This document shows, one piece after another, positions 5,050-55,200 of a DNA stretch of 57,651 nucleotides. The first letter of the stretch is position 1. The number at the start of each line of letters is the position of its first letter. The stretch comes from an uncultured Verrucomicrobiota bacterium. Its GTDB lineage: Bacteria; Verrucomicrobiota; Kiritimatiellia; RFP12; UBA1067. Location of the stretch: the NCBI GenBank assembly GCA_937901395.1, contig CALCDB010000017.1:1-57651 (forward strand), given 5' to 3'. A program made the translations under genes and the position numbers. The notes beneath the pieces are model-generated. The model was not told where the DNA came from and did not search any database. It saw only the letters and a list, made by a program, of their open reading frames with translations.

Positions 5050-6254
5050 AGTCATTAAAAGAGTTGTTCCGCATCGGCAAGGGCCCCAGTTCCAGTCATA
5101 CGATGGGGCCGGCCGCCGCAGCTCGTCAATTCTTGCTTGCGCATGGCGAGCTTGACGCGAAGGAGATGCGCTTCGAGGTAACGCTCTATGGATCATTGGC
5201 GGCTACGGGACGCGGACATCTCACGGATAAGGCGATAGTTTCCGAATTGGGCGAGAAGCGCACTTGCGTATTTTGGCGCGCCGATGAGGAGCTGCCGTTG
5301 CACCCCAATGGATTGGTAATTAGCGCGCTTTCGGCGAATGGCGAAAAACTCGCGGAGGAAACGTATTATTCAATTGGCGGTGGTGAAATACTGATTAACG
5401 GCAAGCGCGATGATTCGCCCGAGGTTTACGCATTTAAATCGACCGAACAGATATTGAGGCATTGCGATAAAACCGGTCTCGCGCTTTGGCAGGTCGTGGA
5501 AAATGCGGAAGGGACTGAGATCTGGAAGTATCTTGATAAGGTATGGAAGGTGATGCAGGAGGCGATTGAATCGGGCTTATCGAAGGATGGCGCATTGCCG
5601 GGCGGTCTTCACTTGCCGCGTCAGGCGAGAGCCAATTACCTCAAGGCGCGTTTCCATCGCAAGGACTTGCAACGCACTGGCTTGTTGGTATCGTATGCGC
5701 GGGCGGTGGCGGAGGAGAATGCCTCGCTTGGAACTATCGTTACGGCTCCGACTTGCGGCAGTTGCGGAGTATTGCCCGCCGTGCTTAGGTATCTTAAGGA
5801 TTCTCTCCACGCTTCGAAGACCGAAATATTGCATGCGCTGGCGACTGCCGGACTTTTCGGCAATGTCGTTAAGACAAATGGATCCATCTCCGGGGCGGAG
5901 GTTGGTTGTCAGGGCGAGGTCGGCGTCGCTTGCGCGATGGCTTCCGCCGCCGCCTCCTATCTATTGGGTGGCTCGCCGCGCCAATGCGAAGCGGCGGCGG
6001 AGATCGGACTCGAACATTTTCTCGGGCTTACCTGCGATCCCGTGATGGGGCTTGTGCAAGTTCCATGCATCGAACGCAATGCGCTCGCCGCCAATCGCGC
6101 GATGGTAGCGGGGGAAATGTCCGTTCTTTCGGATGGCTCGCATATCGTCTCGTTCGATGCGGTCATCAAGACGATGGTTGAAACTGGGCATGATCTGCCA
6201 TCGCTATATCGCGAAACGTCTACTGGCGGACTTTCCCGTCACGTGCGGAGATGA
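5046..6254 (+). CDS. sdaA: L-serine dehydratase, iron-sulfur dependent, single-chain
   Basis: The GTG start overlaps the upstream TGA. Signatures are FRIGKGPSSSHTMGP at the N-terminus and APTCGSCGVLPAV / GAEVGCQGEVGVA in the alpha domain. Confidence 0.9.
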   Translation: MKSLKELFRIGKGPSSSHTMGPAAAARQFLLAHGELDAKEMRFEVTLYGSLAATGRGHLTDKAIVSELGEKRTCVFWRADEELPLHPNGLVISALSANGEKLAEETYYSIGGGEILINGKRDDSPEVYAFKSTEQILRHCDKTGLALWQVVENAEGTEIWKYLDKVWKVMQEAIESGLSKDGALPGGLHLPRQARANYLKARFHRKDLQRTGLLVSYARAVAEENASLGTIVTAPTCGSCGVLPAVLRYLKDSLHASKTEILHALATAGLFGNVVKTNGSISGAEVGCQGEVGVACAMASAAASYLLGGSPRQCEAAAEIGLEHFLGLTCDPVMGLVQVPCIERNALAANRAMVAGEMSVLSDGSHIVSFDAVIKTMVETGHDLPSLYRETSTGGLSRHVRR

Positions 6255-7991: not shown

Positions 7992-8097
7992 GGAGACACT
8001 TGGCCTTTTTGATACCGACACATTAGGCGGACTATAGGGACACTTTGCCTTTTTGATACCGACATATCGGCCGGACTATAGGGACACTTTGGGTCGG
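7992..8097. repeat. ~44-45-bp head-to-tail tandem repeat, 2.4 copies
   Basis: Copy 1 at 7992-8036: GGAGACACTTGGCCTTTTTGATACCGACACATTAGGCGGACTATA. Copy 2 at 8037-8080: GGGACACTTTGCCTTTTTGATACCGACATATCGGCCGGACTATA. Partial copy 3 at 8081-8097: GGGACACTTTGGGTCGG. Confidence 0.9.
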
Positions 8098-10024: not shown

Positions 10025-10659
10025 AAAACTATTTGGACTACGACGAAGACGCTGAACACGACAAGGCTCAACAAGCCCGCCACAAGGAATTCGTGGCTGG
10101 GTTAAGAAAGAGCATGAGTTTTGGACAGGATGACCCCAAGGAAATCATTCAGCGAGCGATGAAATTCTTACAAGATTGCACGACCGAACTCGATGAGGGC
10201 AAGGTGTCGACACTTGAATTTACAACTTGGGATACGATAAAATACATCCTTTCTTTTGATATGGAATACACCTATGCTGGCTTCGATAAGGATCAATGCC
10301 TTGGTGGAGATAAGCCAAAATTGTGCATTTTCGGGGCGAGTGATATGTTGAGCGAATCAGCCGATCAAGAGCGACTACGCAAATTGCTTAAAGCGTATCT
10401 TACCGCAGGGGCGGCACTATCAAGAAAAGCATCGTCTTCTGCCTATGAAGAGTGGATTAAGCTATTAATGGAACTTGAATTCACTGGTAGACACGGAATC
10501 TGCCAGTTTTCGCGAAAAGATGACGCAAATAAGTTCTTTAATCGTATGCGCGTTGCCTTAAAGCGTACTTGGGCGGATAACGAGGTTTATCAGCATATTT
10601 TGATTACAAGTAAACCCCCTACCCCCACACGGAAAAAGGGCCAAAAAAACGCGGTGTGA
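10021..10659 (+). CDS. hypothetical protein (island 1)
   Basis: 212-aa ORF with ATGA overlap to the helicase gene. No recognisable motifs. Confidence 0.55.
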   Translation: MKNYLDYDEDAEHDKAQQARHKEFVAGLRKSMSFGQDDPKEIIQRAMKFLQDCTTELDEGKVSTLEFTTWDTIKYILSFDMEYTYAGFDKDQCLGGDKPKLCIFGASDMLSESADQERLRKLLKAYLTAGAALSRKASSSAYEEWIKLLMELEFTGRHGICQFSRKDDANKFFNRMRVALKRTWADNEVYQHILITSKPPTPTRKKGQKNAV

Positions 10660-10666
10660 GGGGGGT

Positions 10667-10872
10667 GTACTTGTGGTCAAGGTAAAAAAGGTAGATAATT
10701 AATAATATATTTATTTATTATTACTATTATCATCAAATAACGCACTTTCTTGACCACAAGTTAATAGCAAGTAGATAACAAGTAGACCACAAGTAGCACT
10801 TGTTATCAAGCCCCATTTTTCGTCTAAAACCCCAATTTTCACTTGTGGTCTACTTGTGGTCTACTTGTGGTC
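10667..10872. other. origin-of-replication-like region: ACTTGTGGTC iterons flanking an AT-rich tract
   Basis: ACTTGTGGTC at 10669-10678. AT-rich tract at ~10693-10740. Inverted copies at 10750-10761 and 10783-10795. Three direct copies at exact 11-bp spacing (10841-10850, 10852-10861, 10863-10872). Confidence 0.6.
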
Positions 10873-11001
10873 ATTTTGCAAGATGTTTTGGTGTCTCAGA
10901 AGTAACATTTTTACTTTTAACCATTTGCAAAAAGTTTATCACGCAAAATTTACCTATAAAGAAAATTTGCGCAGAGATGTGGACACTACACGCCAATTTT
11001 T

Positions 11002-11010
11002 TGGTATAAT
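11002..11010 (+). promoter_or_regulatory. extended -10 element TGGTATAAT (island cassette copy 1)
   Basis: Lies 6 nt before ATG 11017. Part of a ~45-bp sequence repeated at 40458-40502. Confidence 0.55.
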
Positions 11011-11016
11011 ATAGCC

Positions 11017-11085
11017 ATGTCGTATGAAGAAGCGATAAAGAAAAATGAGTTATATTCCTCCATATACAATAAGCGAATATTATGA
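11017..11085 (+). CDS. putative leaderless mini-ORF (22 aa, MSYEEAIKKNELYSSIYNKRIL)
   Basis: ATG lies 6 nt after the -10 box. The first 9 codons are near-identical to the mini-ORF at 40476. Coding status unproven. Confidence 0.3.
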   Translation: MSYEEAIKKNELYSSIYNKRIL

Positions 11086-11157
11086 TACGATGAGAGCGTT
11101 TGATTGATGAGAAAAGGTATTGAATGAAGATGCTTGTGATAGTCGAAAGGGAATAAG

Positions 11158-11472
11158 ATGAGCATAGCGGTGTGTAAAAGCTGTGGATTGCAATTCTTCG
11201 TGGAAAATCATCCGTTGCCACGTGTTGAGCAATGTCCTCAATGTGGAGAAGCGGTGCTGCTGTCTAAAGACGAACATAGAGATAATGACGAGTCTTCATT
11301 CTGGCTCGGTGCACTTTTTGGAGGGTGGGGTGTGTTGTTTTCCGGTGCTGTAAAGGGCAAATCAGGAATCGATCATGCTCTTGGCGGCGTCTTTGTCGTG
11401 TGGTTGGGCCGTATTCTCGTAATGGCCATCTTGTTTCTGGTTGTTTTAATTGCCTTGTGGCTAAAGTTCTGA
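11158..11472 (+). CDS. small zinc-ribbon membrane protein
   Basis: CKSCG..x19..CPQCG zinc ribbon followed by two hydrophobic helices, with a GGGAA-type SD. Same architecture as 45104..45412. Confidence 0.6.
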   Translation: MSIAVCKSCGLQFFVENHPLPRVEQCPQCGEAVLLSKDEHRDNDESSFWLGALFGGWGVLFSGAVKGKSGIDHALGGVFVVWLGRILVMAILFLVVLIALWLKF

Positions 11473-11523
11473 TGACGAAAAGGAAAAAAGATGGAATGGC
11501 CCCGAAATAAGCGTTAAGATCCT

Positions 11524-11982
11524 ATGAAATGCGTATTCTCTCTACTGCTGATAGTCACCATTGGTTGTTGCTCGTCAACGGCTCTAGAACAGGGTTTGTG
11601 CAAAGGTGATAATTCGGCTATCAAATATTCCATTGGACAATTAGATGGTGTTATTGACGCAAAATCCGTCGATGAGATTTTAGCGATTTTAGGCCCACCT
11701 TCATATATCATTGGAAGTGGTATTGTACGGTACATATGGGCTTTTGATAATGGTGAGCGTTTGCAAGTGAATTGGCCTTATAGTAATGGAAGATGGCCAG
11801 CTGCAAATGTAATTCCTGCTTGGCATATCGATCCTCCAGTAATATCGCTAAAATCTAATGATAATAGTGTTGCAATTGTTAAAATCAATCATAAGCGACC
11901 AAATTTTACATATGTTGTTGAGTCTGATTCACCTTTTGTTGATGTTGAAGGCTGTTTGTTGCGGATAAAAGGGCACTTCTAG
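11524..11982 (+). CDS. putative lipoprotein (island 1)
   Basis: N-terminus MKCVFSLLLIVTIGCCSS is a signal peptide with a lipobox-like IGC. No other motifs. Confidence 0.55.
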   Translation: MKCVFSLLLIVTIGCCSSTALEQGLCKGDNSAIKYSIGQLDGVIDAKSVDEILAILGPPSYIIGSGIVRYIWAFDNGERLQVNWPYSNGRWPAANVIPAWHIDPPVISLKSNDNSVAIVKINHKRPNFTYVVESDSPFVDVEGCLLRIKGHF

Positions 11983-12317
11983 AATCTGGAGTCTCTACAA
12001 CAAATATTAACTGTAGACTTTGGGTGATTAGAGATGTTGATCCTTATCCAAAATGTTTCGATGTCAGAAACATACTTATAGATATTTCAGGCGATTTTGG
12101 AGACACATCCCCGAAATAACTAGAAAAAGTGAAGCCAAGATGAATACAATTGTAAGAATATTGCTTTTTGCTGGTTTGATGAATTTATTCGGGAAAAGGA
12201 GTGAAAAGTCTGTATGGTAAAGAAGGGTGTCCCCAATGGGATGTTGGAGAGGAGGAGGTTGAATTTGAAAAGATTGTGCAAGGGATGGAAAAGTTTTCAG
12301 ATTCGCGCAATGAATTA

Positions 12318-12326
12318 TGATATAAT
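12318..12326 (+). promoter_or_regulatory. extended -10 element TGATATAAT
   Basis: Lies 8 nt before ATG 12335. The TTG at 12332 listed in the ORF track is too close to the -10 box. Confidence 0.55.
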
Positions 12327-12334
12327 ATCGCTTG

Positions 12335-13411
12335 ATGACGTATGATGATTTGAGTTTAAGCGAGTTTCGTGGTTACTTTCAAGCGAAGGAGCCAGGAAAG
12401 CGCGAACGGGCGTTCGCGTGGTCTACGGCCATTGGATTACAAGATGTTGACGGACTTTCCGTCTCTCGGTATTTGGTTGAGACAGCTAAGGACCATATTG
12501 AGGGACGAATTACTCAATCCCAGGCGCGACGACGCATACACGACTATTACGAGGCGAAGAGCGAACAGCGTGCGCCAAATCTCGAGTTGCTTGAACCAGA
12601 TAAGGTGGCGGAGCGAATTGCAGCTGTCATCAATGATGGAGGGTTTGCCTTTACTCCGGAATATTTCATTTCACTCCACGCCAAATTATTCCGTGGAGTC
12701 TTATCATCGGCAGGGAAACTGCGGACACACAACATCCGCAAGCATGAGTGGGTATTGAAGAATGATTCGGTTATTTATGGCGACAAGGCGACGCTGAAGG
12801 CCTCGTTAGTGAGGAACTTCGCGGATGAACGTGAATACGATTACGGCGGTAAGTCGTTGGCAGAGATCATTCCGCATTTTACGCGCTTTATCGCACAGGT
12901 TTGGCAGGTGCATCCTTTCGGTGAAGGCAATACGCGCACGACTGCGGTCTTTGCCATCAAGTATCTGTGTGCACTTGGTTATCGCGTTGCAATCGACATA
13001 TTTCGAGATAACTCTTGGTATTTTCGTAATGCGCTTGTCAGAGCCAATTATGCCGATTATGCGCGGGGGGTGAAGCGAGATTGGGGGTATCTTGAATTGT
13101 TTTTCCGCAACTTGCTTTTGGGCGAAAAGAATGAGCTTAAGAACCGCTATTTGCTAATTGGCTTCAATCGTCCGAAGGAAGATGGCAAAGGTTGTCAGAA
13201 AAAGGTTGTCAGAAAAGGTTGTCAGAAAACGGTTGAACGCTTATTCGGTTTGCTTAAGGCACGTCCGCATTTGACGCAAATTGATATGGCTACGGCATTG
13301 GGGATTTCGCGTCAAGCGGTGCAGAAGCATCTCGCCAACTTGAAGGCCGCAGGGCGTATCCGCCGTGTGGGCCCCGACAAGGGTGGTCATTGGGAGACGA
13401 GGGTAATTTGA
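12335..13411 (+). CDS. Fic/DOC family protein with C-terminal winged-HTH
   Basis: Fic motif variant HPFGEGNTRTTAVF. C-terminal LTQIDMATALGISRQAVQKHLANLKAAGRIRRVG is HTH-like. Confidence 0.85.
   Translation: MTYDDLSLSEFRGYFQAKEPGKRERAFAWSTAIGLQDVDGLSVSRYLVETAKDHIEGRITQSQARRRIHDYYEAKSEQRAPNLELLEPDKVAERIAAVINDGGFAFTPEYFISLHAKLFRGVLSSAGKLRTHNIRKHEWVLKNDSVIYGDKATLKASLVRNFADEREYDYGGKSLAEIIPHFTRFIAQVWQVHPFGEGNTRTTAVFAIKYLCALGYRVAIDIFRDNSWYFRNALVRANYADYARGVKRDWGYLELFFRNLLLGEKNELKNRYLLIGFNRPKEDGKGCQKKVVRKGCQKTVERLFGLLKARPHLTQIDMATALGISRQAVQKHLANLKAAGRIRRVGPDKGGHWETRVI
13187..13229 (+). repeat. 3x tandem AAGGTTGTCAGAA repeat with 14- and 13-nt spacing, inside the Fic gene linker
   Basis: Core copies at 13188-13200, 13202-13214 and 13215-13227. 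They are read in different frames (KGCQK / KVVRK / GCQK). Confidence 0.9.
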
Positions 13412-13447: not shown

Positions 13448-13456
13448 TGGTATAAT
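13448..13456 (+). promoter_or_regulatory. extended -10 element TGGTATAAT
   Basis: TGGTATAATATAGCCATG is identical over 18 nt to the island cassette promoters. Lies 6 nt before ATG 13463. Confidence 0.55.
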
Positions 13457-13462
13457 ATAGCC

Positions 13463-14272
13463 ATGATTACATTGATTATTGCTATTGTAGTTGCGGGGGG
13501 CGTTTTCGCTTCCACGCATTATGTTTTTGATTGGAGTCTCATCTGGAGCATCGTGATGGGAGTCGTCGGATTTGGCGTTTTTCAAGTGCTGATGAGCATC
13601 TTGATTCAACGTCGAGTAAAGGCGGATATGTTGCGAGTTCAGGATATCCTTATGGGCGGGCAAAAACGTTTGCAACAGAAGATGCAACGTTGGCAGATGC
13701 GTCCACCGGGTTCGCTTCAAGCGGCGCAAAAGGAGATTTTCGAAGATACGAAGTTGTTCGTGAAATCGGCATTGGAAGAGACGGAAAAGCTCAGCAAGTA
13801 CAGACTTTGGGTGCCGATGATGGAGAGGCAGATCGCGACGGCGAGGGTGCAGCTTAGTTGGATGATAAAAGATTTCAAGGCGGTTGATAACAACATGAAG
13901 AAGGCGTTGTTATTGGATCCAAGCATGGCGGCGATTAAGATGGCGCGTATGTATATGCTCGATGAGCCGATAGATGCGATTATGAAGGTGTATCACAAGG
14001 GCGTCGCGAGAGTTCGCTACAATGGGAATGTGCTTTTGGCCGCTACGATGAGTTGGATTCAAGTGCATAGAAATGATGCGGATGGCGCATTCAAGACATT
14101 GACGGAGGCGCTTAAGAAGAGCGACAACGCGACATTGAAGCAAAATCACGAGCATCTTATGAATAATCGAGTTGCGCACTTCTCCAATTCGGGCATTGGC
14201 GATCAATGGTATTCGCTATTATTGGAAGAGCCGAAAGTTCATGTGCAGCGTCAGAGGAGCGTTTATCGTTAA
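13463..14272 (+). CDS. membrane protein (two N-terminal TM helices, helical C-terminal domain)
   Basis: The ORF-track start at 13445 lies inside the -10 box, so the next in-frame ATG at 13463 (MITLIIAIVVAGG..) is preferred. Confidence 0.65.
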   Translation: MITLIIAIVVAGGVFASTHYVFDWSLIWSIVMGVVGFGVFQVLMSILIQRRVKADMLRVQDILMGGQKRLQQKMQRWQMRPPGSLQAAQKEIFEDTKLFVKSALEETEKLSKYRLWVPMMERQIATARVQLSWMIKDFKAVDNNMKKALLLDPSMAAIKMARMYMLDEPIDAIMKVYHKGVARVRYNGNVLLAATMSWIQVHRNDADGAFKTLTEALKKSDNATLKQNHEHLMNNRVAHFSNSGIGDQWYSLLLEEPKVHVQRQRSVYR

Positions 14273-39973: not shown

Positions 39974-40049
39974 TAGTAAGAAAGTAATGCCGACGCATTG
40001 GGCTTACCATATAGGCACTAAATCTTTTTGATGTCGTTATATCGCCTTT

Positions 40050-40174: not shown

Positions 40175-40460
40175 TGAGTCGTGCACTTGCTCAACATGAA
40201 AAATGCATATTTTTAGCATTATTTCGTCATATTTTAACTATCGATTCAACATACGCTCAAGTTTGCAGATTGGTGGTTGAAGAGGGAGATTTCGACAGGA
40301 TTAACTTCGATTGGAGATGTGGGAGGTTGAAGGTAAACAGTGGCATTTAAATTGATTTGTAAGATATTTCGCTTTCCTTTGCTGACCCAGTAGATATTAC
40401 CATTCTTTGGAAAAAATTGGAATAATATATTATTAGAATGAAACATGAAAGAAAAAATTT

Positions 40461-40469
40461 TGGTATAAT
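40461..40469 (+). promoter_or_regulatory. extended -10 element TGGTATAAT (island cassette copy 2)
   Basis: Lies 6 nt before ATG 40476. Part of the ~45-bp repeat shared with 11001-11045. Confidence 0.55.
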
Positions 40470-40475
40470 ATAGCC

Positions 40476-40514
40476 ATGTCGTATGAAGATGCAATAAAGA
40501 AAGCGGAGGAATGA
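40476..40514 (+). CDS. putative leaderless mini-ORF (12 aa, MSYEDAIKKAEE) translationally coupled to the next gene
   Basis: Its codons GCG GAG GAA TGA supply a GGAGGA SD and an ATGA overlap with ATG 40511. The peptide start is shared with the mini-ORF at 11017. Confidence 0.3.
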   Translation: MSYEDAIKKAEE

Positions 40515-41227
40515 GCGAGAATAGAGGCGATAGTGGGGCTAGAGATTCTAGAAGCTTTAGTTCTTCTAGAGGGACGATGGGTTCTAGTACCCCGCCTCGC
40601 ATTCTTAGGCCTCAGGCGAAATGGGAAGACCTTTATTTTTACAAAAAGGCGGTGGTTCTCGATCAGCTTACTTTTATTTTTTGTCAGAGGTTTTTGCCGA
40701 AGTATGGCGATAGAACAGTAGATCAAATGATCCAAGCGGCGCGGAGCGGAAAGCAAAATATCGTTGAGGGGCTTGCTGATGGCGTTACTTCGACCGAGAT
40801 GGAACTTAAGCTACTCAATGTCGCGAGGGCGAGTTTGAAGGAACTCAAGGAGGATTACCTCGATTATCTTAGACGGCATGAGCTTGAACTTTGGAATGCG
40901 AAGCATCCGCGCTATGATGGGCTATTGAAGTTTTGCCGTGAACGCAATGAGCTTGCCGACTATCAGCCGTTTTTGGGGAAGTGGACGGATGAGGAGCTTG
41001 CGAATTGTGCGAATACGCTTTGTCACATGGTAGATAAGATGATGTCGACATTTCTTGCGAAGAAGGAAAAGGATTTCACGGAGAATGGGGGAATTAAAGA
41101 GCGCATGATGGCAGCGCGTCTTGGTCGGCGACGGACGCAAAGCGAGGAGATTGCTGCGCTCAAGGCGGAAAATGCGTGGCTTAAGCACAAGATTGAAAGT
41201 TTGAAGCGGGGGATGGGAAATGATTGA
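40511..41227 (+). CDS. four-helix-bundle protein (23S rRNA intervening-sequence protein family) with C-terminal suffix/coiled-coil region
   Basis: LYFYKKAVVLDQLTFIFCQRFLP..DQMIQAARSGKQNIVEG..ELKLLNVARASLKEL matches the four-helix-bundle family pattern. The N-terminus is disordered and Ser/Arg-rich. Confidence 0.7.
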   Translation: MSENRGDSGARDSRSFSSSRGTMGSSTPPRILRPQAKWEDLYFYKKAVVLDQLTFIFCQRFLPKYGDRTVDQMIQAARSGKQNIVEGLADGVTSTEMELKLLNVARASLKELKEDYLDYLRRHELELWNAKHPRYDGLLKFCRERNELADYQPFLGKWTDEELANCANTLCHMVDKMMSTFLAKKEKDFTENGGIKERMMAARLGRRRTQSEEIAALKAENAWLKHKIESLKRGMGND

Positions 41228-46291: not shown

Positions 46292-47983
46292 ATGGATCAG
46301 ATTCTTCAGTTGTTAGTACAGAATGGCTATATCGATGAGGCCAGTGCGAAAGATCTTCAAGATCTTTCAAAGACGGAGTCGAAGACAGTTCGTCAGTTGG
46401 TCATTGACCAAGGGATTGTCGATGAGGATACTTTGTTGTCGGTGATGGCGGCGTATCAAGACACCGAGGCGATAGACTTGGGGTCGATGACGATAGAATC
46501 CGAAGTAACCGAGGCGATACCCGCATCCACTGCGCGGATGTATAATGTATTTCCGATTAGCAGTGATGATAGTTCGGTTACGTTGGTTACCTACGATCTT
46601 ATCGATCCGCGGATATCGGACGAGTTGCTGTTTTCGCTTTCGAAGGAAGTGAAGTTCGTCTTTGCGCGCGAGCAGGACGTAAGGGAGCGCATCGCGCAAT
46701 ACTATGGCGACTCAAACGATTCGGTCGCAGATATGATCAAGTCGTTGGGCGAGGGGATGACGGATGACGAGAGCCTCGCGGCGACGGCGAATTCGAACGA
46801 TATCGCCTCGATGGAGAATGCGGCGAATTCGAGCGCGATCGTGAAGTTCGTGAATTTAGTTTTGTATCAGGGGGTAGTGGATCACGCGGCGGATATTCAT
46901 ATCGAGCCATTTGAGAATGATTTCAAGATTCGTTATCGTGTAGATGGCGCGCTTTACGAGATGAAGGCGCCGGACGTTAAGATGGCGCCAGCGATTATTT
47001 CACGCGTGAAGATTTTGGCGAACTTGAATATCGCGGAGCGTCGCGTGCCGCAGGATGGGCGCATCGCGCTCACGGTCGCGGGAAGGCCGGTGGATTTGCG
47101 CGTTTCGTGCTTGCCGACTTCGCATGGCGAATCGGTGGTAATGCGTATTCTCGACCAGACCACGACATCGTTGGATTTGGAGAACGTTGGGTTGCCGGAA
47201 GACGTGTACGAGCAAATCACGATGGATATCGAGAAGCCGAATGGCATCTTCATCGTGACTGGTCCGACGGGTTCGGGCAAGACGACTACATTGTATTCGG
47301 TATTGCGGCGCATCAACACGATTGATTCGAAGTTGCTTACGGCGGAGGAGCCGGTTGAATACAACGTCGATGGAATCGTGCAAGTTCCGATTGATGCGCA
47401 TGCCGGCAATACCTTCGCGAAGGTGTTGCGCGCATTCTTGCGTCAAGACCCCGATATCATGATGATTGGAGAGATTCGTGATTTGGAGACGGCGGAAATC
47501 GCGGTCCAGGCGGCGCTCACTGGGCACTTCGTATTCTCCACTCTGCACACCAATGATGCGGCGGGCGCGGTAATGCGTTTGGTGGATATGAACGTTGCGC
47601 CATATTTGTTGTCTTCCACGCTGGAGGGTGTCTTGGGGCAGCGCTTGGTAAGAACCTGCTGCAAGGAATGCAAGCAAAGCTACGAGCCGGATGACGAGAC
47701 ATTGGAGCGCATCGAAATGACGCGCGATCAGATCGGCGGGCGTCCATTCTATTTCGGCAAGGGCTGCAAGACGTGTAACGGCACCGGATACAAGGGGCGC
47801 AAGGGGGTGTTCGAATATTTGCGGATGTCGAATCCATTGCGCGAGCTGGTGAACAACCGTGCGCCTACCTTGATTATTCGCGAGAAGGCGCGAGAGTTGG
47901 GGATGCGGACGATGCGTGAGGATGGTATACGTTCCATTCTCGACGGTTACACGACCGTTGACGAGGTATTGCGTTACACCTAA
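46292..47983 (+). CDS. GspE/PilB-family secretion/type IV pilus assembly ATPase
   Basis: N-terminal GSPII_E_N-like domain. Walker A GPTGSGKTTTLY, Asp box MIGEIRD, His box FSTLHTNDA, and tetracysteine CKECK..CKTCNGTG. Confidence 0.9.
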   Translation: MDQILQLLVQNGYIDEASAKDLQDLSKTESKTVRQLVIDQGIVDEDTLLSVMAAYQDTEAIDLGSMTIESEVTEAIPASTARMYNVFPISSDDSSVTLVTYDLIDPRISDELLFSLSKEVKFVFAREQDVRERIAQYYGDSNDSVADMIKSLGEGMTDDESLAATANSNDIASMENAANSSAIVKFVNLVLYQGVVDHAADIHIEPFENDFKIRYRVDGALYEMKAPDVKMAPAIISRVKILANLNIAERRVPQDGRIALTVAGRPVDLRVSCLPTSHGESVVMRILDQTTTSLDLENVGLPEDVYEQITMDIEKPNGIFIVTGPTGSGKTTTLYSVLRRINTIDSKLLTAEEPVEYNVDGIVQVPIDAHAGNTFAKVLRAFLRQDPDIMMIGEIRDLETAEIAVQAALTGHFVFSTLHTNDAAGAVMRLVDMNVAPYLLSSTLEGVLGQRLVRTCCKECKQSYEPDDETLERIEMTRDQIGGRPFYFGKGCKTCNGTGYKGRKGVFEYLRMSNPLRELVNNRAPTLIIREKARELGMRTMREDGIRSILDGYTTVDEVLRYT

Positions 47984-52225: not shown

Positions 52226-55200
52226 ATGTCTGAATTCATTCATCTTCATTTGCATACGACATACTCATTGCTCGATGGGCAATGTCAGATCGTGCCATTG
52301 ATAGCGAAGGCGAAGAAAATGGGGATGAATGCGGTTGCGGTAACCGACCATGGCAATCTTTTTGCGCTCAAGGGGTTCTATGACGAATGTCGCGCCAAGG
52401 GGATCAAGCCGATTCTCGGGGTCGAGGCGTACGTGACCTCAAGCGGCGATTATCGTAGCCGCGATAAGAATGAGCGGCGGCATCACCTTTGCCTGCATGC
52501 GAAGAACTTGACGGGGTATCATAATTTGGTGAAGCTCATTTCGGAAGCGCATATCAATGGGTTTTATCACAATGCGCGTATTGATCACGCGTTATTGGAG
52601 AAGTATCATGAGGGCTTGCACTGTTCTTCGGCTTGCATTTACGGCGAAGTAGCATACTATCTTGACGATGACTTGGAGTCAGGGGGGAATGATCCGGCGA
52701 AAGCGGAGGAGATAGCGAGGTGGTATCACAATTTATTTGGCGATGATTATTCATTGGAAGTAATGTTGCATCCATCTGGCAAGGGCGAGGGGGTATCTTC
52801 GATACCGGCGAAGGAGCCGATACCAGTGGAAGCGATAGCCGGTTTTCGTAGCCTGTATCAACGCCAGAAGCGCATTACCGAAAAGATGATTGCGCTTGGC
52901 AAGAAACTTGGGATACGGGTAATTGCAACGAACGACGTGCATTTTCTGGAAAAGGAAGATGATGATTCGCATGATGTATTATTAGCGCTTTCGACGGGCA
53001 AGAAGATGTCAGAATCGGGGCGCATGATCTATACGGGGCAGGAATATTTCAAGTCGGAAGAGGAGATGCTGGAATTATTCAAGGAATATCCAGAAGTAGT
53101 CGCGGCAACGAAGGAAGTAGCGGATAGGGTCGAGGAATACGAGCTTAATTCCGATCCGATTATGCCGAAGTTTCCGATTCCCGAAAGCTTTGGCACGGAG
53201 GCGCAATATGCCGAACGTTACGACGAGGCGGCGTTAAGAAAAGAGTTCAACACCGAGGAAAAGCCGAAGAACTTCGAGCGTCTGGGGGGCTATGACAAGG
53301 TCTTGCGAATCAAGTTCGAGGCGGATTATCTATCGGCGTTAGTTTACGAGGGAGCCAAGCGCAGATGGGGCGAACCGCTGGATAGCGATATCAGGGAACG
53401 AATAGATTTTGAATTGAATGTAATCAAGACGATGGGTTTTCCTGGGTACTTTCTTATCGTCAACGATTATATTTCGAATGCGCGCAAAATGGGAGTATGG
53501 GTAGGACCGGGGCGTGGTTCGGCGGCTGGCGCGGCGGTAGCTTATGCGCTTGGTATAACCAATGTGGATCCGCTAAAATATGATTTGCTATTTGAACGCT
53601 TCCTCAACCCCGATCGAATTTCGATGCCAGATATCGATGTCGATTTTGATGATGCCGGACGCGCCAAGGTGTTTGATTTCATAACCGCCAAATATGGTCA
53701 AGATCATGTAGCGCATATCGTTACCTTTGGTCAGATGGCCGCGAAGAGCGTAATCAAGGATGTGGGGCGGGTAATGGGGTATAAACTGGCAGATACGAAC
53801 AAGTTGGTTTCGTATGTTCCCGATACTCCAAAGATAACCTTCAACAAGGCGATTGAGGTGTCGCCAGAATTAAAGGCGGCCTTTGAATCGAAAGATCCAG
53901 TAATCCACCTTCTGATGCAACGCGCGAAGCGACTTGAGGGGGGAATGCGTCAACCAGGAGTGCACGCTTGCGGAGTGATTATTTCGCGAGATCCGTTAAT
54001 TGACACCTTGCCGGTAATGCCGACGGAAGGCGAGTCATTAATGACTACGCAATATGATGGACATTTCGTGGAGCCGGTTGGGCTGCTCAAGATGGATTTC
54101 TTAGGGCTTAAGACGCTCACGGTGGAAAAGGAATGCGTGGAACTATTGGGGGCGAACAATCCGCGAGTTCCGAAAGAGCTTTGGGGCAAGGACGGAAAGT
54201 TGGACCCAGATAAGATACCTGATGACGATCGCGAAACCTACGAGTTATTCGGACGAGGCGAGACGACGGGACTATTTCAATTTGAATCTGACGGGATGAA
54301 GAAATGGTTGATCGCCTTGCAGCCGGAGAAGCTTACGGATTTGGTGGCGATGAACGCATTGTATCGTCCGGGACCGATGGATTATATTCCAACCTTCGTT
54401 CGGCGTAAGCAAGGCGAGGAGCCGATTAAATACGATCATCCTTTGATGGAGCGGTATTTGAAGGATACGTATGGCGTATGCGTATATCAAGAGCAGGTGA
54501 TGTTGCTTTCGCGATTATTGGGAGGATTCACGCGCGGGATGTCGGATGCGCTTCGCAAGGCGATGGGCAAGAAGAAGCTTGATGTAATGGAGGCGCTGAA
54601 GGTTAAGTTCATAGACGGGTGTTTGGCGAACAAGGAATTCAGGGTAGACAAGTGGGCCGATGAAGCGGAAGCGCGTGCGTTAATCGATAAGATATGGAAT
54701 GATTGGCGGGCATTCGCATCGTATGCGTTTAACAAGTCGCATGCAGTGTGCTACGCGTGGATAGCATATCAGACGGGATACTTAAAGGCGCACTATCCAT
54801 CGGAGTTCATGTGTGCGCAAATCAGTTCGGAAATTGGCAACTTCGATAAGCTACCCGGGTTCGTTGCTGAAGCGCAGGAGATGGGCTTAAAGTTGATGTT
54901 GCCAGAAGTAAATGAATCGGGTTCACGATTCGTTCCAACGAAAGATTCGAAGGGTATCCGTTATGGGCTTTCTGGCATCAAGGGCGTTGGGAATGCGGGC
55001 GAGATAATCGTTGCGGAGCGCAAGAAGAATGGTCCATACGCGGGATTTCTTGATTTTTGCATGCGGTTAGCGGGCACGCAGGCGGCGAACAAGCGAGTAT
55101 TGGAGAATCTGACGCGCACGGGAGCATTTAGTTCCCTTGAGCCCAATCGTGCATTGCTTTTCAACAATATAGAATTTGCCTTACGCAAGGCGCAGCAACG

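Follow-up and report, generated by a model that had tools for sequence, protein, structure and literature searches.

Two accessory islands of an uncultured Kiritimatiellia bacterium share a generic leaderless promoter and what are probably truncated 5' ends of a small 55-aa gene

Two accessory islands of an uncultured gut or rumen Kiritimatiellia bacterium are each headed by nearly the same 45 nucleotides, a predicted promoter that runs directly into a very short open reading frame (ORF), which raises the question of whether the shared stretch is a regulatory leader or has arisen in another way. The window analysed here is the whole 57,651-nt stretch of contig CALCDB010000017.1, to which all coordinates refer unless another contig is named, and searches were extended to the complete assembly (210 contigs, 1.55 Mb, 52% G+C, 71% complete). 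Both copies of the repeat lie on the forward strand, at 10999-11043 and 40458-40502, and are identical at 43 of 45 positions. The first-pass annotation of this DNA had described a 45-nt repeat with two differences, and this was borne out, apart from a first coordinate that was off by 2 nt (10999, not 11001). As described there, one difference is a synonymous change in an alanine codon (GCG to GCA) and the other a conservative one (GAA to GAT, E5D). Exactly two occurrences of the 30-mer TTGGTATAATATAGCCATGTCGTATGAAGA were counted in the window, where 100 shuffles gave an expectation of zero.

Each copy contains a TATAAT hexamer (11005-11010 and 40464-40469) preceded by TGG, which together make up extended -10 boxes of the form TGn-TATAAT at 11002-11010 and 40461-40469. 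The hexamer is followed by ATAGCC and by an ATG (11017 and 40476), placed 6 nt 3' of TATAAT, and codons 2-9 read SYEEAIKK in the first copy and SYEDAIKK in the second. The first of these stub ORFs, MSYEEAIKKNELYSSIYNKRIL, occupies 11017-11085 on the forward strand and has 22 codons plus a stop, and the second, MSYEDAIKKAEE, occupies 40476-40514 on the same strand, has 12 codons and ends GCG GAG GAA TGA, its stop, TGA, being part of the ATGA with which the next gene starts (ATG at 40511). Searching the rest of the genome for the 45-mer, as the first-pass annotation had proposed, showed that the assembly has a third copy, on contig C91. This copy has about 150 nt of upstream sequence in common with island 1 and the nine nucleotides GCGGAGGAA after the repeat in common with island 2, and its stub ORF reads MSYEEAIKKAEENAKFFPWDRSGV followed by a stop.

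The two halves of the repeat behave very differently. Positions 1-21 (TTTTGGTATAAT-ATAGCC-ATG, that is, TTTTGG-TATAAT-ATAGCC-ATG) have the makeup of a generic extended -10 promoter and start codon. Throughout the assembly, 108 ORFs of at least 60 aa are preceded by TATAAT with an ATG 6-10 nt further on, and the upstream consensus of these sites is aaaTnTG(a/g)TATAAT. The pattern TGnTAnnnT, 5-10 nt before an in-frame ATG, was found near the 5' end of 88 of 1,298 long ORFs (approximately 7%), as opposed to 15 occurrences at internal ATGs, which served as control, and an extended -10 box with a nearby ATG is common across the genus. Some 90-100 long ORFs display the same geometry, for example dnaE at 52226 (MSEFIHLHLH..., with a conserved N-terminus), and a gene of the T2SS-E type at 46292 is another example of the leaderless pattern. 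The core GGTATAATATAGCCATG is present in identical form at 13448-13465 on the forward strand, where it heads an unrelated gene for a 269-aa membrane protein; this control indicates that the promoter part is generic. When a 197-nt query containing promoter and stub was compared with 60 related genomes, the only matches were to the string TTTTTGGTATAATATAGCCATG, which in genomes of the same genus heads gatB, secreted-protein genes and other unrelated genes.

At both sites, the -10 box ends about 5-10 nt before the start codon and no Shine-Dalgarno (SD) sequence lies between them (TGGTATAAT, ATAGCC, ATG). The leaderless geometry noted earlier, with the ATG 6 nt after TATAAT, fits a pattern that holds genome- and genus-wide. 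These promoters lack a match to the -35 box and were for this reason missed by a simple -35/-10 consensus scan of the window. A full-text literature search yielded no description of leaderless initiation in Kiritimatiellia. Judged by these comparisons, repeat positions 1-21 are a genus-wide standard promoter used by many unrelated first-in-operon genes. Since it matches the local consensus perfectly, the promoter very probably drives both island operons, and translation of the stubs as leaderless mini-ORFs is plausible.

The 24 nt after the ATG are specific. A comparison of 102 sites in this genome that consist of TG[AG]TATAAT, 5-10 nt and an ATG (5,151 pairs) showed that the three MSYEE copies agree at 22-23 of 24 positions, whereas all other pairs agree at 16 or fewer, except for one pair belonging to a second such family (23/24). 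The first-pass annotation had proposed a dedicated cassette of promoter and mini-ORF, and had itself held that a generic promoter in front of many unrelated genes would speak against it; this is what was found for the first 21 nt, and a dedicated cassette is not supported. The second family of promoters with leaderless short ORFs is located on contigs C76 (two copies) and C132. Here TATAATACGAG(G/T)CG-ATG leads into MGAVEASVVKLALISLLGIGG..., in versions of 26 and 31 aa, with a 43-aa paralogue, MSWEIEVSVVKLALMSLLGIGGAIIWIAWIKWRNLLSWLDMGV, that resembles a small membrane protein; one copy of this family uses the promoter module of about 80 nt that also precedes island 1.

The similarity of the three MSYEE copies ends with the shared part, and local alignments of the regions 3' of it were no better than shuffles (p 0.12-0.83). 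The search in related genomes suggested by the first-pass annotation did not yield the stub: it had no match in 36 genomes of the same genus and 24 of the same order, with 3 mismatches allowed, nor among GTDB species representatives. From these searches, the stub appears to be absent outside this species. Several candidate sources of the short ORF were rejected. In metagenomes, the peptide pattern MSYE[ED]AIKK was matched by chance, at the N-termini of XseB proteins and in internal aminoacyl-tRNA synthetase motifs, and the genome's own xseB starts MKFEDN behind its own leaderless promoter. A longer parent was not found, as no protein of 66-210 aa among approximately 5.8 billion cluster representatives contained three 5-residue words of the 24-aa peptide of C91. 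A phage origin was also discarded, as neither the stub nor the promoter module had an exact match in viral contigs and the small-protein family described below had no PHROG match. Rfam detected only a tRNA-Pro in the window.

A search with the 24-aa peptide of C91, padded to 45 residues, identified two called ORFs in other samples, P0121 and P0122. On L155, a 1.7-kb contig from another metagenome, the same promoter and ATG lead into an intact ORF of 55 codons, MSYEEAIKKAEENAKFFPCGKEEGGREWIEVEGKRYPKDWFIQHAARMMAGGELG. Counting against the explanation given below, an intact parent gene was found on this contig only; there is none in the present 71%-complete assembly. Positions 1227-1376 of L155 and 40361-40511 of the window are 94.7% identical over 151 nt, so that island 2 and L155 also have about 105 nt upstream of the promoter in common, and C91 is 100% identical to L155 over 74 nt.

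The 55-aa ORF has 11 relatives detectable with HMMER among 1.84 billion representative proteins. Eight of them were retrieved, with lengths of 53-99 aa (53-60 aa in seven cases), and most start with M(T/S/N)Y(E/D)(E/D)A. The family consensus, MTYEEA..EA...FP...G..WIEVEG..YPKDWF.RHAARMK..GE., begins with an N-terminal helix of the form M(T/S)YEEA(L/I)..A, and the stubs, MSYE(E/D)AIKK(AEE), fit this helix. In one member (L157), GTG is the start codon and is preceded by an ordinary SD. The family profile recognizes the C91 stub with E = 2e-5 and found nothing in the 60 relatives. AlphaFold predicts a helix, three strands and a second helix for the 55-aa protein, with a mean pLDDT of 86.6. The protein had no match in Pfam, NCBIfam, PHROG or PDB sequences and no significant fold match, apart from a weak and short resemblance to the AP2-like sheet-helix modules of HNH homing endonucleases. 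Taken together, these comparisons argue that the 55-aa ORF is a real gene of an uncharacterised family of 53-60 aa. None of the three copies in the genome has the three-strand core and C-terminal helix of a full-length member, and they are best read as remnants of the family and not as members in working order.

The copies end at different points of the parent gene. Island 1 tracks the parent through codon 9 and continues with unrelated sequence, so that only codons 1-9 of its 22-codon ORF derive from the parent. The 12 codons of the island 2 ORF correspond to parent codons 1-12, and the similarity extends through GGAGGA(A) of codon 12, after which ATGAGCGAG... marks the start of a gene encoding a four-helix-bundle protein with a suffix domain. 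C91, and likewise L154 from another sample, follow the parent to ...TTCTTTCCTT, which is succeeded by the 32-nt palindrome GGGACCGCAGTGGGGTCTGACCCCATTGGTAC; C91 is cut after codon 18 by this palindromic dispersed repeat, and removing these 32 nt restores the FFPCGK junction of P0122 and of the intact gene. The palindrome has the core TGGGGTC-T-GACCCCA and seven copies in the genome, on C91, C27 (two), C132, C156, C165 and C182, and L154 carries another at its positions 5146-5177, inserted in the small gene as in C91. The element could be REP-like or a binding site for a protein, linked to rearrangement breakpoints.

Differently truncated copies of a real gene indicate that the apparent cassette is a set of pseudogene stubs. 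We consider it probable, with some confidence, that the shared 45-mer is a generic leaderless promoter joined to the truncated 5' end of the 55-aa gene, that is, a recombination scar and not a regulatory leader. According to this explanation, transcripts from the promoter half would begin at the start codon or right beside it, as they would for many unrelated first-in-operon genes, and the following 24-33 nt would be the first 9-12 codons of a small accessory gene. Three different rearrangements would have cut the copies at codon 9 (island 1), codon 12 (island 2) and codon 18 (C91), when accessory or defence cargo recombined behind an existing promoter and left pseudogene stubs over. The promoter of the scar would still fire and may drive the neighbouring genes.

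Traces of an insertion sequence accompany one of the copies. On L155, the divergent neighbour of the 55-codon ORF encodes an IS30-family transposase (NF033563, 162 bits, cut-off 80), and an 11-bp inverted repeat pair, TGGGTCAGCAA and TTGCTGACCCA, is located at 19-29 and 1245-1255 of that contig, near the ends of the transposase gene. A remnant of an IS30-family terminal inverted repeat, TCCTTTGCTGACCCA, is present at 40375-40389 of the window. The block shared with L155 (40361-40511, forward strand) consists of this IS30-end remnant, a flank of about 85 nt, the promoter and the first 12 codons of the small gene. Transposase and inverted repeats occur together on L155, whereas the window keeps only the terminal 15-29 nt of the element (40361-40389), 70 nt upstream of the island 2 promoter, and the assembly contains no IS30 transposase.

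Strain variants in other samples document how the stubs are combined with their surroundings. The arrangement of promoter, stub and zinc-ribbon gene found in island 1 is reproduced in independent assemblies of other samples (L031-L036), and in one of them, L033, a TAC to TAA change creates a nonsense codon at stub codon 17. Two Logan contigs start inside the island 2 stub and run on into the four-helix-bundle-suffix gene, and in L029 different cargo, namely genes for an ORF6N protein, a DNA methylase and a HATPase_c_3 protein, follows behind that gene. Across strains, the stub has at least three upstream contexts, the promoter module of about 80 nt, the IS30 flank and the L154 flank, all of which join at TTTTGGTATAAT; this is what recombination at a generic promoter core would give.

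In island 1, the dispersed promoter module (AAAGTTTATCCACGC...GCGCAGAGATGTGGACAC...CGCCAATTTTTTGGTATAAT) covers 10931-11010 on the forward strand, and a blastn search against the whole assembly located it also on contigs C91, C76, C197 and C109. Its left boundary at 10931 recurs in the strain variants L031 and L033, and the module has the same left junction on C76 and C197. In L031 and L033, both from other samples, an insert of about 260 nt that contains four tandem units of the ATTCCAAAATTTGGA type separates the iteron origin from the promoter module. Within the module, an imperfect inverted repeat, TCCACGCAAAATTT ... AAATTTGCG..GTGGA, lies at 10940-10990, its centre some 45-50 nt 5' of the -10 box; it has the look of an operator and could place the five module-bearing loci under one regulator.

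The first cargo gene of island 1 encodes a 104-aa zinc-ribbon protein with two transmembrane segments (11158-11472, forward strand) and has its own weak SD, GGGAA. It begins 72 nt after the stub, in agreement with the 22 codons and the spacer of about 70 nt described earlier. In both the minimum free energy (MFE) and the centroid fold of the island 1 leader, UAUUCCU inside the stub pairs with the GGGAAUA SD of the zinc-ribbon gene, but the folds of the three leaders are no stabler than those of shuffled sequences (z = -0.67 for island 1, -0.33 and -0.31 for the others). Terminator-like sites were detected neither in 10600-12400 nor, in island 2, in the interval that separates the promoter from the first gene.

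The first gene of the island 2 operon encodes the four-helix-bundle protein with a suffix domain (TIGR04258/TIGR02436; 238 aa, 40511-41227, forward strand). An alternative start at M23 (40577) corresponds to the 216-aa call of the record itself and to the start of 218-aa homologues. The 238-aa protein has 7,757 matches, the best 120 of which are 72-100% identical, an unusual degree of conservation. Most sampled homologues belong to type I restriction-modification operons, in which they are flanked by hsdM and hsdS (in two sets with 4-nt overlaps); others lie between ubiA and folC-like genes or head other loci. The closest sampled homologues (85-87% identity) overlap hsdM as ATGA, and an ATGA start is present in every sampled homologue. 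The N-terminal extensions of the homologues are rich in Ser, Arg and Gly like that of the window's protein and contain no internal Met, which supports the start at 40511.

Repeats of the form (N)CTAGA make up the 5' region of the four-helix-bundle-suffix genes, at 40535-40580 in the window and also in L117-L153. Where the gene encodes a 218-aa homologue, the repeats precede the start codon, are non-coding and follow one another at exactly 11 nt; in the gene of the window and those of its closest homologues, the spacing is a multiple of 3 and the repeats can be read as an N-terminal extension rich in Ser and Arg. They look like a conserved element acting at the nucleic-acid level.

The first-pass annotation had proposed translational coupling in island 2 through an SD and an ATGA overlap. 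The overlap is present at 40511-40514, with stop and start on the same strand as in a coupled pair, and parallels that of the closest homologues with hsdM, which lends the coupling idea comparative support. The proposed GGAGGA could not be upheld as SD: GGAGG ends 1 nt before the ATG at 40511, and this spacing is too close for a normal SD. It is plausible that, in island 2, ribosomes terminating at the UGA of the stub re-initiate at the overlapping AUG of the four-helix-bundle-suffix gene. If the true start were M23 at 40577, the argument for coupling would be weaker, and this possibility counts against that part of the scar explanation.

Some observations run counter to a scar without function. 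None of the three rearranged copies has lost the promoter or has fewer than nine in-frame codons, which could reflect selection for a 5'-terminal AUG, and the junction between the stub and the four-helix-bundle gene is kept in at least two other samples, with different cargo in one of them (L029), which fits a maintained head. Selection might in this case preserve promoter and first codons as an exapted device in which translation of the stub delivers ribosomes to new cargo, the 5'-terminal AUG being the main route of ribosome loading, with AUGA re-initiation in island 2 and unmasking of the SD in island 1. The stub would then be a reusable expression head spread by recombination at the promoter core, from which defence cargo is translated by re-initiation, and the four-helix-bundle-suffix gene would be pre-adapted to such coupling by the ATGA start of all its sampled homologues. 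Further points in favour are other very short leaderless ORFs that overlap or abut main ORFs, on C196 (4 codons, ATGA), C13, C146 and C206, and the pairing of the island 1 SD with the stub. We nevertheless regard this device, and equally the spread of a reusable head, as unlikely. The copies are young (96-98% identical), so that no conclusion on selection can be drawn from the fact that they persist. The 19 short ORFs counted after TGnTATAAT compare with about 12 by chance (an estimate made without a shuffle control), a weak enrichment; the folds do not exceed shuffles in stability (z -0.3 to -0.7); and the peptides diverge after codons 9-12, one variant having a premature stop.

The first-pass annotation had hinted at a regulatory leader peptide; such a leader or attenuator would adjust the expression of the island genes to a signal sensed by the peptide or through its translation. 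In favour of it are the location of the short ORFs at the head of two accessory operons and the fact that the sole amino acid change between the copies is a conservative E to D. The conserved residues are, though, explained by descent from the conserved N-terminal helix of the family, and the ORFs contain no runs of regulatory codons. Neither mutually exclusive hairpins or terminators nor conservation of the short ORF before orthologous operons in relatives was found, the stub being absent from the 60 relatives and the GTDB representatives, and the C-termini are unrelated. With three cut points in a 55-aa gene, a nonsense variant and no attenuator fold, we judge this interpretation very improbable. 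That the repeat marks chimeric joins in a metagenome-assembled genome is, in our estimate, extremely unlikely. The assembly does consist of 210 contigs, and C91, C197, L029, L030, L034 and L035 have an end within or beside the repeat; against this, L031, L032, L033 and L036 from other samples span the junction of promoter, stub and zinc-ribbon gene, L155 and L154 span the passage from the island 2 flank through promoter to stub, and the identical stretch is just 30 nt long, below the k-mers given in those contig names (k141, k119).

The preferred scar explanation may be compared with known systems. Mycobacterial transcripts can begin with leaderless short ORFs (Shell et al. 2015, PMC4633059; Smith et al. 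2022, PMC9094748). The present loci resemble them in having a -10 box a few nucleotides before the ATG, no SD, and an ORF ahead of or overlapping the main gene. They differ in that the short ORFs, known here from sequence alone, are the cut 5' ends of one 55-aa gene at three loci, and in that the host belongs to the Kiritimatiellia of the PVC group and is not an actinobacterium. Coupling by termination and re-initiation at overlapping AUGA has been described (Huber et al. 2019, PMC6728339), and island 2 shares with it the ATGA at 40511-40514 and a gene family that overlaps hsdM elsewhere, whereas its upstream partner is a 12-codon remnant and not a full gene, GGAGG is 1 nt from the AUG, and the coupling is putative. 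Like trpL-type attenuators, the short ORFs stand at the 5' end of an operon, but they lack alternative hairpins, a terminator, regulatory codons and conservation beyond the species. The IS30-end remnant upstream, the sharp breakpoints and the intact arrangement elsewhere recall IS30-family rearrangement and promoter capture in accessory islands; unlike in promoter capture from an insertion sequence, the promoter lies outside the IS and belongs to the neighbouring small gene, and the stubs of island 1 and C91 have no IS30 trace.

Our findings offer an explanation for what appeared to be a regulatory cassette: the islands of this uncultured Kiritimatiellia bacterium would be rebuilt by joining cargo behind a leaderless promoter, and the displaced gene would leave short stubs when new cargo joins. 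For annotation, they point to a uniform extended -10 promoter of the genus that -35/-10 scans miss and gene callers read through, to a previously unnamed family of small proteins, and to four-helix-bundle-suffix genes that habitually overlap the preceding gene. If the stubs were indeed selected as launch pads for re-initiation, they would represent a modestly new way to express acquired genes.

Two further features of the window concern its repeats and its flanks. A 44-nt unit, GACACTTGGCCTTTTTGATACCGACACATTAGGCGGACTATAGG, is present in tandem at 7995-8082 and 39980-40035, right after the stops of the genes flanking both islands. Copies of it also stand at the ends of at least 25 contigs, so that it is a dispersed tandem repeat of high copy number at which the assembly breaks up. 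Synteny at the island 2 site was not detected: in 80 related genomes, the 1.5 kb lying upstream of the gene for the T2SS-E-type ATPase (46292-47983 in the window) had nothing in common with the window. In many relatives (L043, L049, L053 and others), the match to this gene spans about 2.5 kb and not 1.7 kb, and an inserted sequence (perhaps an intein), a segmental duplication or another paralogue next to the gene could account for it.
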